A stretch of DNA of 64,000 bases, taken from assembly GCF_053078305.1 (NCBI RefSeq), contig NZ_CP166879.1; one strand, written 5' to 3'. The translations under genes and the position numbers were made by a program. This document shows positions 2,657 through 42,538 of this stretch, piece after piece (positions within the stretch are counted from its first letter, which is position 1; each line of letters opens with the position of its first letter). The notes under the pieces are model-generated. The model saw nothing but the letters and a program-made list of their open reading frames with translations, was not told where the DNA came from and searched no databases.

Positions 2657-2845
2657 TTCTCCACCTCGTCTCTGTGAGCGGTGTTAACTTATTGTTTTAC
2701 TTATACCCTATCGTTAATGAATGCGCCAACTGTGATAGTGTCATCATTTTCAAAGCGTAAAATTGTGGCATTCTTCACTGTTCTATAAGTAAGGCGTTTA
2801 TTCTCCCTTTTCTTTCGTATTCCCGATGATAAAAGGATGTCCCTG

Positions 2846-8123: not shown

Positions 8124-9536
8124 TTATTTCCGCAGTTCAGCAGCCCGCTTCTTACCAATAAACAACCAGCCCAGCCCCAGTGCGATAAACCACAGCGGGG
8201 TGACCAACAGCGCCTGGCGAGTGTCATCTTCCAGTGTCAGCAACACGACCACGAACACAAAGAACGCCATACATACCCAGCACATCAGCTTGCCGAGCGG
8301 CATCTTGTAGATCGACTTCTCATGCAGATGAGGACGCTGTTTGCGGTATACCAGGTACGAGCAAAGGATAATTGTCCAGACGAACATAAACAGAATCGCG
8401 GAAACGGTTGTAATCATCGTGAACGCGCCAATCACGCTAGGATTCACATACAACATCACCACGCCGCCGAGCAGACAGATACACGAGAAGGTCAACCCTT
8501 TCGCGGGTACTGCGCGCTTAGAAAGTTTAGCGAACGCTTTCGGTGCCACACCTTCCTGCGCCAGACCAAACAGCATACGGCTGGTAGAGAAGACGCCGCT
8601 GTTAGCGGAAGACGCCGCAGAGGTCAGCACCACAAAGTTGATCACGCTTGCGGCAGCAGGCAGACCCACCAACACGAACAGTTCAACAAACGGGCTCTTC
8701 TCCGGGACTACCGAACTCCACGGCGTCACGGACATAATCACAATCAGCGCGAAGACGTAGAACATAATGATACGGATCGGAATGGAGTTAATCGCGCGTG
8801 GCAGTGATTTCTCTGGATCTTTGGTTTCCGCAGCTGTTGTACCTACCAGCTCAATCCCCACGAAAGCGAAAACCGCTATCTGGAATCCGGCAAAGAAGCC
8901 ACTTAAACCTTTCGGGAACCAGCCGCCGTCATTCCACAAATGCGCGAATGACGCTTCCACACCAGTCGGTGACTGAAAGTGCATCGCCACCATGACCAGG
9001 CCGACGACAATCAGCGACACAATGGCGACGATTTTGATCATCGCAAACCAGAACTCCATCTCACCGAACATTTTCACGGTGGCGAGGTTAAGCGTCAGCA
9101 GCAGCACTATCACCGCCAGCGAGGCGACCCAGTCGGAGAGATCGGGGAACCAGAACTGAGCATAAGCCGTGATCGCCACCACGTCTGCCATACCGGTTAC
9201 AACCCAGCAGAACCAGTAAGTCCAGCCGGTGAAATATCCTGCCCACGGCCCGAGTAAATCGGAAGCGAAGTCACTAAAAGATTTGTATTCCAGATTCGAA
9301 AGCAGCAATTCCCCCATTGCCCGCATCACGAAAAAGAGCATAAAACCGATGATCATATAAACGAAAATGATCGACGGCCCGGCAAGGCTAATCGTTTTGC
9401 CGGACCCCATAAACAACCCCGTACCAATGGCACCGCCAATGGCAATAAGCTGAATATGTCGGTTTGTGAGATTGCGCCGTAGCGACTGTTCAGCCGGAGC
9501 CTGATCATCGGCAACGACTTTTACCTGATCTACCAT
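8124..9536 (-). CDS. cycA: D-serine/D-alanine/glycine APC-family transporter CycA
   Basis: 470-aa ORF, amino-acid permease family; recognised as CycA. Confidence 0.95.
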   Translation of the reverse strand: MVDQVKVVADDQAPAEQSLRRNLTNRHIQLIAIGGAIGTGLFMGSGKTISLAGPSIIFVYMIIGFMLFFVMRAMGELLLSNLEYKSFSDFASDLLGPWAGYFTGWTYWFCWVVTGMADVVAITAYAQFWFPDLSDWVASLAVIVLLLTLNLATVKMFGEMEFWFAMIKIVAIVSLIVVGLVMVAMHFQSPTGVEASFAHLWNDGGWFPKGLSGFFAGFQIAVFAFVGIELVGTTAAETKDPEKSLPRAINSIPIRIIMFYVFALIVIMSVTPWSSVVPEKSPFVELFVLVGLPAAASVINFVVLTSAASSANSGVFSTSRMLFGLAQEGVAPKAFAKLSKRAVPAKGLTFSCICLLGGVVMLYVNPSVIGAFTMITTVSAILFMFVWTIILCSYLVYRKQRPHLHEKSIYKMPLGKLMCWVCMAFFVFVVVLLTLEDDTRQALLVTPLWFIALGLGWLFIGKKRAAELRK

Positions 9537-9844
9537 GTTTTTTTCTTCCTGTACCTGTCTGTGTTGTTCAGGCTCTACGGCCTTTAGTCAGTCTATGATA
9601 CGACGAATCTGTATCGGGACTCATCGATATTAGGTAACAATACGCGGGATGAATACTAAGATTTAGATCTAATGTTAATTTTATGTTTAAAGTGAGTGTC
9701 ATATCACGGTGATAACGCGAAACAGCTCACAAAAATACACGCTTACGGGGTCTTTGCAACACAAAATAGCGCCGTTTGGCAAACTGAAGGGTTTATTGCT
9801 GAATGCCTGCTCCCCTCTGGTTCGAGGGGAACAGAATGCGCTGC

Positions 9845-10465
9845 TTAGAGGATTTCCAGCAGTTCGACTTCAAACACCAGGGTGCTGAACGGAGGGATGG
9901 ATGCGCCTGCGCCACGCTCGCCATATGCCAGTTCCTGCGGGATAGTCAGTTCCCATTTAGAACCTAGCGGCATCAGAGTCAGTGCTTCAATCCAGCCAGG
10001 GATCACGCCATTAACCGGGAATTCAGCGGGTTCACCACGAGCAACGGAGCTGTCAAACACGGTGCCGTCGATCAGTTTACCGGTGTAATGAACACGAACG
10101 CGGTCGGTACGTGCCGGAATTGCGCCTTCACCCTGGTTGATCACGCGGAATTGCAGGCCAGATTCGGTGCTATTCACACCTTCTTTTTTGGCGTTTTCTT
10201 CCAGGTATTTCACACCTTCAGCAGCCATCGCCTGGAAACGCTGACGACGAACGGCATCGGCGCGCTCGTGGATTTCACGCAGCGCGCGATGCACCACATC
10301 AACCGGAACAGCCGGATGTTTGCCTTCCAGCGCATCGGCAATACCTGCAACCAGTGCTTCTGGCAGCAGCCCTTCCAGGCCAGATTCACTCAGTTGTTGC
10401 CCTACCTGCAAACCAATGCCGTAGCTTGCTTGCGCTTCGATGGTGTCAAAAGTTGGGGTGGTCAT
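9845..10465 (-). CDS. fklB: FKBP-type peptidyl-prolyl cis-trans isomerase FklB
   Basis: ORF track 9845-10624 is over-extended; start set at MTTPTFDT (206 aa); FKBP domain. Confidence 0.93.
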
Positions 10466-10682
10466 CGTATTTCCTTTCTTAGGGTATAAAGTAGCGGGCA
10501 GCATATCAGCCACACTTCTTTGGGTAAAACTTTGTCGCGGGAATGATGACAAATCCCGGGGAAAAAGAAACAATAGCAATATCCCGTATGAATATAATAA
10601 AGGCGGGTTTACCACGGACATCATAGCGTTAGCTTATTCATAGGCTATGATTGAGGAACAAGACGCGGAGCAGGAGGAAACC

Positions 10683-11321
10683 ATGCCCGGGCGCTTTGAA
10701 CTAAAACCAACCCTGGAGAAAGTCTGGCACGCGCCGGACAATTTTCGCTTCATGGACCCGCTGCCGCCGATGCATCGTCGGGGGATCATTATTGCCGCCA
10801 TTGTATTGGTGGTCGGATTTCTGCTTCCATCTGATGATACGCCCAACGCGCCGGTGGTGACGCGTGAAGCGCAGTTAGATATTCAGTCGCAATCACAACC
10901 GCCGACAGAAGAACAGCTGCGGGCGCAATTAGTCACACCACAAAATGATCCTGATCAGGTGGCTCCGGTCGCTCCAGAACCTATACAGGAAGGCCAGCCA
11001 GAAGAGCAGCCGCAAACTTCCCAAACGCAACCATTCCAGCCAGATAGCGGAATTGATAATCAATGGCGCTCTTACCGTGTCGAACCCGGTAAAACGATGG
11101 CGCAGCTGTTCCGCGACCACGGACTGCCCGCTACCGATGTCTATGCAATGGCGCAGGTAGAAGGCGCGGGTAAACCGCTGAGTAATTTGCAAAATGGGCA
11201 GATGGTGAAAATCCGCCAGAACGCCAGCGGCGTGGTGACGGGCTTAACCATTGATACGGGGAATAATCAACAGGTCCTGTTTACCCGCCAGCCGGATGGC
11301 AGTTTTATTCGCGCGCGGTAG
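10683..11321 (+). CDS. ytfB: Cell-division protein YtfB (OapA/LysM-like)
   Basis: ORF 10647-11321; start set at MPGRFELKP (212 aa); Pro/Gln-rich linker and OapA-like C-terminus. Confidence 0.82.
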
Positions 11322-11455
11322 ATGAAGGGTCAACCAGAAGCCAGCTAAGGATTGTCTCTTTGATGACCTTACGTCTGGCTTCCAGTGCCTGGGGTGAAAT
11401 CATACTGATGTGTTGACATCCTCCACGCCCTGAAGGACGTGGATCCCTGCTACGT

Positions 11456-12664
11456 TCAGGCTGTCGCCTGAATCATTTCGGTGGGTTCCTGCTTCAACGG
11501 GCGGCCTGACTGCACCATCTCTCCACAGGCAAGAACGGCGTGCCCCGCCGCTAAAATGTTACGAGCGCCATTTACATCAGCGTTCGCTGTATATCCACAT
11601 GCCTGGCATCTGAATTTACTTTGTGACAGGCGATTTTCTTTCGCTGTATGACCACAGCACGCGCAACGCTGGCTTGTGTACGCTGGCGGAACAGCAAGCA
11701 CCTGACCGCCACGCCAGAGCTGCTTGTACTCAAGCTGGCGGCGCATTTCATACCAGCCCTGATCCAGTATCGAACGGTTTAAACCTGATTTTGCCCGGAC
11801 ATTGCGCCCCGGCTGGCTGACCGTACCCGCTGCTGACTTTGACATGTTGCTGACCTTCAAATCCTCAATGACTATCATTGCGTGGTTTTTGCTGACGGTC
11901 GTTGTGACTTTGTGAAGGTAGTCCCTGCGGATATTTGCGATACAGGAATGCAGTCGCTGTATTTTGCGTTTCTGCTTCTGCCAGTTGTTGCTGAATTTGA
12001 CCTTGCGGCTTAACTGTCGCTGAAGTCTCGCCAGCGTCTTCTGGTTTTTCTGAAAACTGTTTACAGGCCCAAAAACTGTGCCATCTGACAGCGTGGCGAG
12101 TTTAGCCACGCCAGCATCCAGTCCGACCATTAATGCTGAAGGATGAACCGGAGTTGATACTTCATTTTCAGTCTGAATACTGATGTACCACTTACCGCAG
12201 GACTGGCTGACAGTGACATTTTTCACAACACCCGTGACCTGACGGCTATTCCGGTAGCGCATCCAGCCAAGTTTCGGCAGAAAAATACGGCTGTTTTCCT
12301 GATCGAGCTTAACGCCCTGCGGGTAGCGGAATGCATCATTCTGTCCCCGCTTTTTGAATCGGGGAAAAGCAGCCCGCTTCCGGAAGAAGTTTTTGTAAGC
12401 CCGCTCAAGGTCTTTCAGTGACTGTTGCAATGGCTGTGACGGGGCATCTTTAAGCCATTGCGTTTCAGTGGCATTTTTCCACTCAACCAGCCAGGAAGCC
12501 ATTTTCCCGTAAGGGATGTATTTATTACCGGCCTCATGATTCTCATTCTGACGTGCCAGAGCACGATTGAAAACGAAACGACATGCGCCTGCGAAGCGCC
12601 TCATTTCACGCTCCTGTTGACCACCGGGTCTTAACTGGAATTTAAATGCCTGTAGTCGTTTCAC
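11456..12664 (-). CDS. tnpB: IS200/IS605-family TnpB (OrfB, RuvC-like RNA-guided nuclease with C-terminal zinc finger)
   Basis: 402-aa ORF; C-terminal CxxC...CxxC (CACCGH...CQACGY) and RuvC-like motifs typical of TnpB. Confidence 0.9.
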
Positions 12665-12671
12665 AGGCCAA

Positions 12672-13103
12672 ATGATACTTTGGTCTGTGAAAAAAGAAAC
12701 CGATATCCGGCGTGGAAGGCATTGTGTTTTCCTGATGCATGTTCACCTGGTCTTTGTCACCAGATACCGACGCCAGATTTTTGACCATGACGCGACAGAA
12801 AAACTACGCACTTACTTTTCAAAGGTATGTGCTGATTTTGAAGCTGAACTGGTTGAAATGGATGGCGAACCAGATCACGTCCATTTGTTAATTAACTATC
12901 CTCCCAAACTGGCGATATCCAGTCTGGTAAACAGCCTCAAAGGCGTATCGGGTAGGTTACTGCGACGAGATCGACCAGATATTGCAGTCAGGTATTACTA
13001 CAAAGGCGTTTTGTGGAGTCCTGGCTATTTTGCCAGTAGCTGCGGAGGTGCGCCAATATCCGCCATCCGTCAATACATTGAACAACAGCAAACACCTGGT
13101 TAG
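12672..13103 (+). CDS. tnpA: IS200/IS605-family Y1 HUH transposase TnpA
   Basis: 143-aa ORF with HUH motif (HVHLLI) and catalytic Tyr region ([12 protein letters not shown]). Confidence 0.85.
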
Positions 13104-13304
13104 GTGGAAAACCGCGCCGTATATCCCCGCCCTGAAGGACGGGGTTTTACGGCGCACCGGATAAACCAGGCCAAGCGTATGCTGGTTGATCAAATAATAT
13201 CCCCTAAGCGCAGCAATATTAATATTCACCTGCAATGGGTCGATATCTGGCTTAAAAATATTGTATTTTTTCCCTTCATCCAATAAGGATTCCATTAACT
13301 GCAA
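13104..13304 (-). pseudogene. 5' fragment of an ORF (possibly ytfA-like) running into the IS200/IS605 end
   Basis: Minus-strand ORF 12957-13304 starts outside the IS and continues into tnpA-coding IS sequence; only the first ~60 codons are non-IS. Confidence 0.3.
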
Positions 13305-13725
13305 GTGCGCATGGTTATTTCTAAGAGACGCTGTGATTTTGCATAATGCACACCTTTACTTTGATTTTCACTATGCACAATTTTTAAAAACCAGGGGTTA
13401 GCAATATAATAATCCCATGTAAAATCAATAATTTTCTCAATGGCTTTTTGTGGCTGGTTAACCTGCTGATTAACGAATACACCGATACCGACAGCGTAGA
13501 ATAATTACATACCGCACAACAAGAATGTACGGTGTAAGGCGTGGAAGTCATTTTCTCCCCGGGTGCATCGTTATATCCATAATGAGCGATTTTTGATATT
13601 AATATCTTTCACCATCCGCTATTTTCACCACTTCAGAAAACAAACTTATTTTTATTAATATCAATTCTTTTTCTTTGAACATTCAGCTGCGATATTTGTA
13701 AAAATATTAAACAGGTAACATTACA

Positions 13726-14520
13726 ATGACATTACCAACCACTATTTATTCATTTCCTGCATATTTATCTCGTTTTTCGTCCACCGACAAACCAGTAAAA
13801 TTAAAATTTCATCAATACGCACGCGCTACATTACTTTCAAATCGTGGAAGAGATCATAATTGCGATGGCAGACGTACTGTTGAGATCCACAAACTAGATC
13901 TCTCAGACTGGCAAGCATTCAATAAGTTAGCGACGAGGTGTAATGCTTACGATGGAATAACAATGAAGGGTGATAATTCTTTTGGATGGAACCATGAAGC
14001 TACATTAGATAATATTCACGCCCAGAAATACAATAAAGCTTACACGGGTGCGAGGTTAACCGCAGAACTGAAATATTTATTGCAAGATGTCGAATCCTTC
14101 GAACCCAATAGTAAATACACAATACACGAAGTGGTTTTGGGACCTGGTTATGGTACTCCAGACTATACCGGCCAAACGATAGGATACGTTGTAACCCTTC
14201 CTGCCCAAATGCCTAATTGCTGGTCATCTGAACTACCAACAATCGATCTTTATATCGACCAACTTCGCACTGTTACAGGCGTTTCTAATGCCCTCGGATT
14301 CATCATTGCTGCATTGCTAAACGCGTATTCTGATTTACCCCATGATTTGAAAATTGGTCTGCGTTCCTTATCAAGTTCAGCCGCAATCTACTCGGGTTTG
14401 GGTTTCGAGCGAGTGCCGCAGGAGCGAGACATCAGTTGCGCTCGTATGTATCTAACGCCAGCAAACCATCCTGACTTATGGACACAAGAGAATGGTGAAT
14501 GGATCTACTTGCGAAACTAA
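13726..14520 (+). CDS. yjfZ: DUF2686-family protein YjfZ
   Basis: 264-aa ORF, AT-rich; position next to rplI matches K-12 yjfZ. Confidence 0.75.
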   Translation: MTLPTTIYSFPAYLSRFSSTDKPVKLKFHQYARATLLSNRGRDHNCDGRRTVEIHKLDLSDWQAFNKLATRCNAYDGITMKGDNSFGWNHEATLDNIHAQKYNKAYTGARLTAELKYLLQDVESFEPNSKYTIHEVVLGPGYGTPDYTGQTIGYVVTLPAQMPNCWSSELPTIDLYIDQLRTVTGVSNALGFIIAALLNAYSDLPHDLKIGLRSLSSSAAIYSGLGFERVPQERDISCARMYLTPANHPDLWTQENGEWIYLRN

Positions 14521-14542
14521 TACCTGACGAAAAATAGAAAGC

Positions 14543-14570
14543 AAAACGCCGACCAATGGTCGGCGTTTTT
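14543..14570. terminator. Bidirectional rho-independent terminator (yjfZ / rplI convergent)
   Basis: ACGCCGACC-AAT-GGTCGGCGT hairpin followed by TTTTT; A-run upstream serves the opposite strand. Confidence 0.75.
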
Positions 14571-14590
14571 ACGTCTCGTTGAATAACGAA

Positions 14591-15052
<462 letters not shown>

Positions 15053-15081
15053 TCAAAGTCGTATTAATGGACCGTGACCGA

Positions 15082-15628
<547 letters not shown>

Positions 15629-15634
15629 CAGAAA

Positions 15635-16048
<414 letters not shown>

Positions 16049-16356
16049 TTATTCAGCCTCCTGTCTGGGTCAGCCGAATCCCGGGGAGGCAAGGAACGTG
16101 TTAAAGGTCGGCTGAAAAATGACGCGTTATAGTACTGACATACCCCGCTAAACTCAAGGCCAGCCGACAAATAAATCTCATCTTTCACCAAAGTGGACTA
16201 ACACGCTGATTTGAAGTTCATCACACTTCATCATGGTGTTTTTTTGAACAACTGCATCAGAAATGGTCACCATCAACTTCTTTATCATTGATTAAAATTA
16301 AATCAGAAGTTCATCACAGAGGAGAGCACACAAAGTCAGCCGTCGAGGAGGTATCT

Positions 16357-41985: not shown

Positions 41986-42211
41986 CTGGCCACCCTGATT
42001 CCTTCCCGTAACAACTGACGCCAGACTTTACGCACATCGTATACGCACGGTATCTTTTTCTTCAGCCAGTCATCACGCTGCGCACGGGCATTGCGTTTAT
42101 CAGGATGATGTCGCTGTTGCTGACAGTGGTAATACGTTGACGGGGCAATATGCAGTTCACTGCATACCGGTCCGATCCCGTACTGCTCACGCGACTTATC
42201 CAGCAGTGGCA
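41986..42211 (-). pseudogene. IS629 OrfB, truncated after ~75 codons
   Basis: MPLLDK...HIAPSTYYHCQQQRHHPDKR matches IS629 OrfB N-terminus then runs into the terminal IR. Confidence 0.7.
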
Positions 42212-42538
42212 TTATTTTTTCCAGGGGCGGTCGAACTCCGCCTTCGCAAAATAAGTGGAAGCCTGGCGAAGGATATCGTTACTGCGGCTCAGTTCACGAT
42301 TTTCACGTTCCAGCTCTTTCAGACGCTGACGTTCAGTGGTGGTGAAACCACCATCACCGCCCCCAATATCCTGCTCATGCTGGAGTACCCAGACGTGCAG
42401 AGTCTCCGGTGTACAGCCAATCTTAGGGGCAATAGAACAAATTGCTGTCCATTGTGAGTCATATTCGCCCTGACTTTCCAGAACCATACGAACTGCCCGT
42501 TGACGGACTTCGGGGGAAAAACGTGTATTTTTAGTCAT
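42212..42538 (-). CDS. IS629 OrfA
   Basis: 108-aa ORF MTKNTRFSPEVRQRAVRMV... recognised as IS629/IS1203 OrfA. Confidence 0.85.
   Translation of the reverse strand: MTKNTRFSPEVRQRAVRMVLESQGEYDSQWTAICSIAPKIGCTPETLHVWVLQHEQDIGGGDGGFTTTERQRLKELERENRELSRSNDILRQASTYFAKAEFDRPWKK

Follow-up and report, generated by a model that had tools for sequence, protein, structure and literature searches.

Among the insertion sequences (ISs) of the IS200/IS605 family, the organization closest to that reported here is found in IS605 and IS606 of Helicobacter pylori, which we take to be characterized by divergent tnpA and tnpB genes, subterminal hairpins, the lack of terminal inverted repeats and the lack of target duplication. 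The mechanistic model for the transposase TnpA is ISHp608 (IS608), in which tnpA and tnpB are read in the same direction; its target, the tetranucleotide TTAC, lies 5′ of the left end and its right end terminates in TCAA. For the RNA-guided endonuclease TnpB the reference is ISDra2 of Deinococcus radiodurans, with its D-E-D catalytic triad, zinc finger and a structured RNA (omega-RNA) that extends over the 3′ end of tnpB and the right end; its transposon-adjacent motif (TAM) is TTGAT. Excision of IS200/IS605 elements reseals the donor molecule exactly. The present work concerns an element of this family located between the ytfB and yjfZ genes in a stretch of 64,000 nucleotides from contig NZ_CP166879.1 (RefSeq assembly GCF_053078305.1), referred to below as the window. 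With a probability of about 0.93, judging from its sequence, it is an apparently autonomous copy of IS609 with the IS605-type layout, a "peel-and-paste" single-strand transposon. IS609 at the ytfB-yjfZ site is already known, since it has been annotated by RefSeq in Escherichia coli O55:H7 and O157:H7 genomes.

The window element resembles IS605 and IS606 in layout, both the host and the sequence being different. Its TnpA aligns with that of IS608 (chain 2a6m, E=7e-19) and its target is likewise a tetranucleotide 5′ of the left end, but this is TTAT instead of TTAC and the two genes are divergent. With ISDra2 TnpB the window TnpB has the D-E-D triad and the zinc finger in common and a structured RNA is predicted at the corresponding place, whereas the RNA scaffold has a different sequence and for the TAM the prediction is TTAT, compared to TTGAT in ISDra2.

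The identity of the element was established by megablast of positions 11300-13400 against 5426 complete E. coli genomes. Full-length matches including the flanks were found in O55:H7 and O157:H7 strains with 99.4% identity over 2.1 kb; the gene order given there by RefSeq is ytfB, a TetR fragment, InsQ/TnpB (product "RNA-guided endonuclease InsQ/TnpB"), "IS200/IS605-like element IS609 family transposase", a second TetR fragment and yjfZ. The matches to copies at other loci (ydcO, the insQ locus of K-12, yedK and yeaQ, about 98% nucleotide identity) are confined to the segment from 11409-11413 through 13164-13170, and the identity to copies labelled IS609 or insQ by RefSeq, K-12 included, is 97.5-98.5% over ~1753 bp. 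The ISfinder name IS609 is used here on the basis of these RefSeq-labelled copies. Nothing of substance distinguishes the window element from the other IS609 copies, apart from tnpA being uninterrupted in the window and in O55:H7 and carrying an internal stop in the K-12 and yedK copies. The right-end motif is present only once in the 64 kb, and no further copy of the element was found in the window.

The exact limits of the element were provided by an empty allele in the uropathogenic strain UPEC_U013 (locus L002), a comparison with an uninterrupted locus that had been suggested in a preliminary description of the window. In this strain the flanks are contiguous (...GATGTG/ATAAACC..., in longer form ...CATACTGATGTG/ATAAACCAGG..., the slash marking the junction) and correspond to the two window flanks joined with zero repeated bases, hence without target-site duplication. 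Since the L002 flanks are joined in this way and the matches at other loci stop at or within a few bases of these points, the element is bounded to the base by 11413 and 13160, with no bases duplicated. The preliminary description had recognized the element correctly, but had extended it from 11400 to 13304. On the minus strand the left-end junction is GGTTTAT/CCGGTGCGCC... and that of the right end is ...GGAGGATGTCAA/CACATCAGTATG. The element combines a Y1 HUH TnpA, ends devoid of terminal inverted repeats, imperfect subterminal palindromes in the same orientation, the lack of target-site duplication and a fixed tetranucleotide, TTAT, 5′ of the left end, which agrees with its earlier classification as an intact member of the IS200/IS605 family.

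In the whole window there are exactly two copies of the 11-mer CCCTGAAGGAC (at 11428 and at 13130), each on the plus strand and each within a 21-nt direct repeat whose copies (11422-11442 and 13124-13144) are 90% identical. When folded as single-stranded DNA both copies form hairpins (z-scores -3.5 and -4.8), one with a 9-bp and one with an 8-bp stem, each with a TTCA loop; at the left end the inner stem, on the minus strand CCCCGTCC-TTCA-GGGCGGGG, is nested in an outer stem spanning 13114-13155. The motif shared by both ends had been noticed in the preliminary description and taken as a whole for the loop, but only its TGAA (TTCA on the top strand) is unpaired, the remaining bases being part of the stem. 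One pair is closed on the minus strand by a G·T wobble, the plus strand having a mismatched C·A there, which fits the minus strand as the active "top" strand.

The cleavage sites are shared by the relatives of the element. The right terminus is conserved over relatives spanning 43-94% TnpB identity; its form ...GGAGGATGTCAA is kept down to 62% and ...GATGTCAA is always present in relatives with TnpB 62-85% identical, the flanks diverging directly beyond it. TTAT abuts the left end at six of six different insertion sites (that of the window and L001, and those of L003, L004, L005, L008 and L009). Both TTAT and TCAA have been listed as frequent sites for the left and right cleavage in such elements (PMC9956272). 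The pairing of TnpA "guide" tetranucleotides with the cleavage sites was also considered, and since all relatives share TTAT and TCAA there was no variation that could be used. The Shigella sonnei plasmid pSH276-1 (L011) carries on its minus strand, next to hok/sok and some 350 nt past the right end of the tnpB element found there, a short sequence uniting a left-end-like stem with a right-end terminus (...GCGCCTTATATCCCCGTCCTTCAGGGCGTGGAGGATGTCAA), to all appearances a miniature hybrid of the left and right ends similar to palindrome-associated transposable elements (PATEs).

Both genes of the element are uninterrupted and, as stated in the preliminary description, divergent, the open reading frames (ORFs) being separated by 7 bp (Table 1). 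TnpA matches the whole Pfam Y1_Tnp profile (E=1.8e-41), scores 145.7 bits against NCBIfam transpos_IS200 (cut-off 55), aligns to solved TnpA chains with its HUH motif H69-V-H71 and Tyr135, and is identical to the O55:H7 protein named IS609 family transposase by RefSeq. TnpB matches Pfam HTH_OrfB_IS605, OrfB_IS605 and Cas12f1-like_TNB and reaches 385 bits against NCBIfam guided_TnpB (cut-off 100). In the alignment with ISDra2 TnpB chain 8h1j (residues 3-376, E=4e-55) D183, E267 and D363 stand opposite D193, E280 and D363 of the chain, which we equate with the published native triad D191/E278/D361 on the assumption of a 2-residue offset of the construct, and the CxxC pairs at 334-337 and 353-356 (C334/C337, C353/C356) align to the zinc-finger residues. 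The description of TnpB as a full-length protein of 402 amino acids with RuvC and zinc-finger motifs is upheld by this alignment, and the catalytic RuvC residues, whose absence had been named beforehand as fatal to that description, are conserved.

The same residues bear on the idea that TnpB is not a part of a transposon but a domesticated regulator devoid of nuclease activity (TldR-like). The sole point in its favour is the long residence of the gene at one site, discussed below; the intact RuvC triad contradicts the loss of nuclease function on which the idea depends, the zinc-finger cysteines are preserved as well, the gene stands between the two ends of the transposon with tnpA next to it, and we give this interpretation next to no credence.

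The state of tnpA varies among the IS609 copies. Translation revealed a stop at codon 96 in the ydcO copy of K-12 (L003) and in the yedK copy, while several others, including some from other lineages at the very site of the window copy, lack either the TAG stop or the ATG start and are flagged as pseudogenes by the Prokaryotic Genome Annotation Pipeline. Upon translation these flags were found to cover two things, real internal stops and loss of the stop codon with read-through; truncation as the meaning of the flag in all copies was ruled out in this way, several of them being read-through cases. The copies without a stop codon read through the left end, and L016 lacks the ATG. All tnpB copies examined are essentially full length, L017 and L018 ending 4 codons early with a stop at Q399. 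The damage to tnpA set against full-length tnpB would fit a stronger conservation of tnpB. Because the tnpA genes of other copies are damaged in various ways, the window copy is among the better-preserved IS609 copies. Since the gap between the two genes is only 7 bp, the promoter of each must lie inside the other. A 14-nt inverted repeat at 12659-12692 (TTTCACAGGCCAAA/TTTGGTCTGTGAAA, 93% complementary) spans this gap together with both start codons and may serve as an operator or as a structure acting in translation.

An omega-RNA had been expected from the intact tnpB, at the 3′ end of this gene and the right end, and the expectation is supported by covariation and by recurrent sub-threshold Rfam matches. 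RNAalifold was applied to the 185 nt that finish at the right end in 13 aligned elements and found 36 consensus pairs, 10 of them with compensatory changes, compared to 2.7±1.1 in shuffled alignments (0/500 reaching 10) and 2-5 when the partners were slid. Upstream of the terminal hairpin lie three helices with compensatory changes; as TnpA should not need them, they argue for a structure formed in RNA rather than only in DNA. The covariance-model search for the scaffold, proposed in the preliminary description, gave three matches at the expected place when hits at E≤1 were accepted (HgcC, RAGATH-18 and sot0042, Table 1), none of them at gathering level. The hairpin of the right end, including the UUCA loop, and the GGAGGAUGUCA that comes after it correspond in the alignments to the 3′ parts of HgcC and sot0042, and the stem CCUGUGGAG...GAAGCAGGAA corresponds to RAGATH-18. 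Of eight related loci scanned (plasmids of Klebsiella, Salmonella, Providencia, Shigella and Acetobacter and a Methylomonas locus) seven gave matches, also below threshold, to one or more of the three families at the same relative position, the Methylomonas locus giving no match to any of the three. Every score being below the gathering threshold, the likeness is one of resemblance and not of membership, and the filing of the RNA under HgcC, sot0042 or RAGATH-18 was rejected. It has been reported that sense transcripts overlap the tnpB 3′ end, E. coli K-12 included, that the right-end hairpin with the UUCA tetraloop is linked to HgcC, and that HgcC and sotRNAs are tied to tnpB (Gomes-Filho et al., PMC4615843). 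On comparative sequence evidence an omega-RNA in the last ~140 nt, which take in the 3′ end of tnpB and continue as far as the right end, is well supported.

The element does not lie in bare intergenic DNA, as the preliminary description implied when it correctly placed the insertion between ytfB and yjfZ, but inside a TetR-family pseudogene. The intact gene of L002 encodes a TetR/AcrR-family protein of 215 amino acids and runs convergently to ytfB, whose 3′ end it overlaps; in the window it is split by the IS after the Tyr179 codon (...HTLGLVY/HISM...). An adjacent minus-strand ORF had been thought to be truncated by the insertion, and so it is, the TetR gene having suffered also a 5′ deletion and a frameshift. 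The homology to TetR stops at 13454, leaving out the N-terminal ~81 codons and the promoter, and 1 bp is missing at 13316 relative to O55:H7. The ORF 12957-13304, with a match to Pfam TetR_C_29, is a chimera made of a TetR fragment continued into the left end of the IS. The gene hit by the insertion was decaying anyway.

The occupied site is widespread in E. coli. The left-junction probe (200 nt, coverage ≥80%) was covered in 1743/5426 complete genomes (32%) and an equivalent empty-site probe in 3247/5426 (60%), which rejects the possibility, raised in the preliminary description, that the arrangement is ancestral in all relatives. With 1743 genomes sharing the occupied site and junction identities between 95 and 99.5%, the insertion is old, and it is polymorphic in E. 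coli, neither unique nor universal. IS609 was found at no fewer than four (at least 4) different chromosomal sites and on plasmids, and with several such sites occupied it must have moved repeatedly within E. coli. Among 2467 E. coli genomes, 90.9% have been reported to carry divergent-type TnpB-bearing elements (PMC9956272). The best match to the window over 8800-15901, O55:H7 RM12579, shows 43 differences in 7.1 kb; because this divergence of ~0.6% from the nearest of the complete genomes is uniform, the window source is a lineage related to, yet distinct from, RM12579.

The frequencies could in principle be read in the opposite direction, with the occupied state ancestral for E. coli as a species and the "empty" alleles being products of precise excision, which by sequence are indistinguishable from alleles never occupied. 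The presence of the IS in several distant serotypes (O55:H7 and O157:H7, O111:H11, O152:H23) would agree with this. The empty allele is, however, in the majority, and in UPEC_U013 it goes together with the complete 215-aa TetR gene and a neighbouring operon, whereas the window and the occupied alleles examined hold only fragments of the TetR gene, which must have been whole before any insertion. An ancestral occupied state is for these reasons very improbable in our view.

The course of transposition and the role of TnpB may be outlined by analogy with IS608 and ISDra2. A TnpA dimer would bind both hairpins on the single-stranded top strand and cut the left end after TTAT and the right end after TCAA. 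A circular single-stranded intermediate would be released, the donor would be precisely resealed, and the circle would be reinserted 3′ of another TTAT. A transcript starting within tnpB and passing through the right end into the flank would form the omega-RNA, with a scaffold of at least 11551-11413 and a guide of about 11412-11393. The predicted guide CACAUCAGUAUGAUUUCACC directly follows TTAT in the empty allele, as the homing model requires. TnpB with the omega-RNA would then cut DNA containing TTAT followed by CACATCAGTATG..., i.e. the empty or excised allele, the predicted TTAT-flanked target being CACATCAGTATGATTTC, and recombinational repair from a sister copy would restore, and so retain, the element.

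Several points weigh against the interpretation of the locus as an autonomous IS609 with a working omega-RNA. The TAM and the role in homing are predictions carried over from the relatives; a measured IS609 TAM was not found in the literature, where the sole mention is of IS609 TnpB purified for a nuclease screen (PMC12781874). The covariation of the terminal hairpin may equally well be due to the DNA hairpin needed by TnpA, and no Rfam family reached the gathering score in the element region. The promoter scan predicted no sigma-70-like promoter on the minus strand for the omega-RNA, and the scan of the element region for promoters and terminators gave nothing above shuffle expectation. Finally, according to the sole direct observation on the mobility of IS609 that was found, the K-12 copy never transposed in mutation-accumulation lines (PMC5009759), an immobility qualified by the stop codon inside tnpA of that copy.

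This last observation is one of the points in favour of the view that the window copy is an immobile relic whose ORFs are still open but which is fixed as a vertically inherited fossil, tnpB and the omega-RNA persisting by drift or owing to some host-level role. The age suggested by the 1743 occupied genomes and their junction identities speaks for it, as do the tnpA genes that have lost stop or start at this very site in other lineages and the internal stops of the ydcO and yedK copies. In the window, however, the tnpA and tnpB genes are intact, as are the two hairpins and the two cleavage sites, with the catalytic residues in place, and the spread of IS609 over chromosomal sites and plasmids indicates repeated movement. 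A relic is possible but, on balance, rather unlikely, and we retain the reading of the window element as an apparently autonomous IS609.

The features of the locus are collected in Table 1. Between the middle TetR fragment and yjfZ the window contains a segment of ~100 bp (13458-13560) that is 81% identical to a part of the 3-ketoacyl-ACP reductase gene adjoining the intact TetR gene in UPEC_U013 (L002 2454-2556), apparently what is left of an operon of which nothing else is seen in this part of the window. The Rfam matches at gathering level elsewhere in the window are an ALIL pseudoknot (42141-42257, minus strand), an RpsF leader (16028-16112, minus strand) and the ES239 small RNA (2723-2845, minus strand). 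As the ALIL pseudoknot is the frameshift signal of IS3-family elements, another IS is present in the window.

Table 1 Coordinates of the IS609 element and the adjoining features in the window
Feature	Position	Strand	Description and basis
IS609 (IS200/IS605 family), 1748 bp	11413..13160	- (window minus strand is the top strand)	Empty-allele comparison, other copies, RefSeq naming
Right end	11413..11443	-	Hairpin TCCACGTCC-TTCA-GGGCGTGGA (11422-11443), then GGATGTCAA; cleavage after TCAA at 11413; DNA fold
Left end	13114..13160	-	Extended hairpin 13114-13155, 16 nt inside terminus; inverted repeat and DNA fold (z=-4.8)
Target tetranucleotide and predicted TAM 5′-TTAT-3′	13161..13164	-	Directly 5′ of left end
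tnpB (insQ-type RNA-guided endonuclease), 402 aa, GTG start	11456..12664	-	Pfam and NCBIfam matches
tnpA (Y1 HUH transposase), 143 aa	12672..13103	+	Pfam Y1_Tnp 1-121/121, NCBIfam transpos_IS200
Predicted omega-RNA scaffold, minimum extent	11413..11551	-	Covariation and sub-threshold Rfam matches; further helix may reach 11582
Predicted omega-RNA guide CACAUCAGUAUGAUUUCACC	11393..11412 (read 11412 down to 11393)	-	Predicted from TnpB/omega-RNA architecture
HgcC (RF00062), sub-threshold	11400-11519	-	24.3 bits, gathering 50
RAGATH-18 (RF03064), sub-threshold	11486-11529	-	25.4 bits, gathering 44.9
sot0042 (RF02656), sub-threshold	11422-11583	-	17.5 bits, gathering 88
C-terminal TetR/AcrR fragment, last 35 codons and stop	11305..11412	-	Overlaps ytfB 3′ end; translation matches L002 protein; RefSeq pseudogene fragment
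Middle TetR fragment, ~codons 82-179	13161..13454	-	blastn to L002 1613-1908, 96% identity; 1-bp frameshift at 13316

IS609 has been catalogued and is routinely reported in E. coli genomics, and the mechanism of TnpB and omega-RNA has already been established for close relatives, so the finding matters little beyond correct annotation. It is conceivable, although quite unlikely, that the copy in the TetR pseudogene is the sole IS609 of its lineage with a fully intact tnpA and acts as a master copy supplying transposase in trans to the defective ones, and that its frequency of one third is kept partly by TnpB/omega-RNA cutting of the TTAT-CACATCAGTATG... empty allele when this enters by recombination. 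If that were true, the locus would be a natural, population-level example of TnpB homing. What the analysis offers are base-exact ends, a TTAT target and predicted TAM, a predicted guide, a polymorphic site and an uninterrupted tnpA in this lineage; taken together, these features would recommend the locus as a natural substrate, convenient for tests of TnpB-mediated retention.

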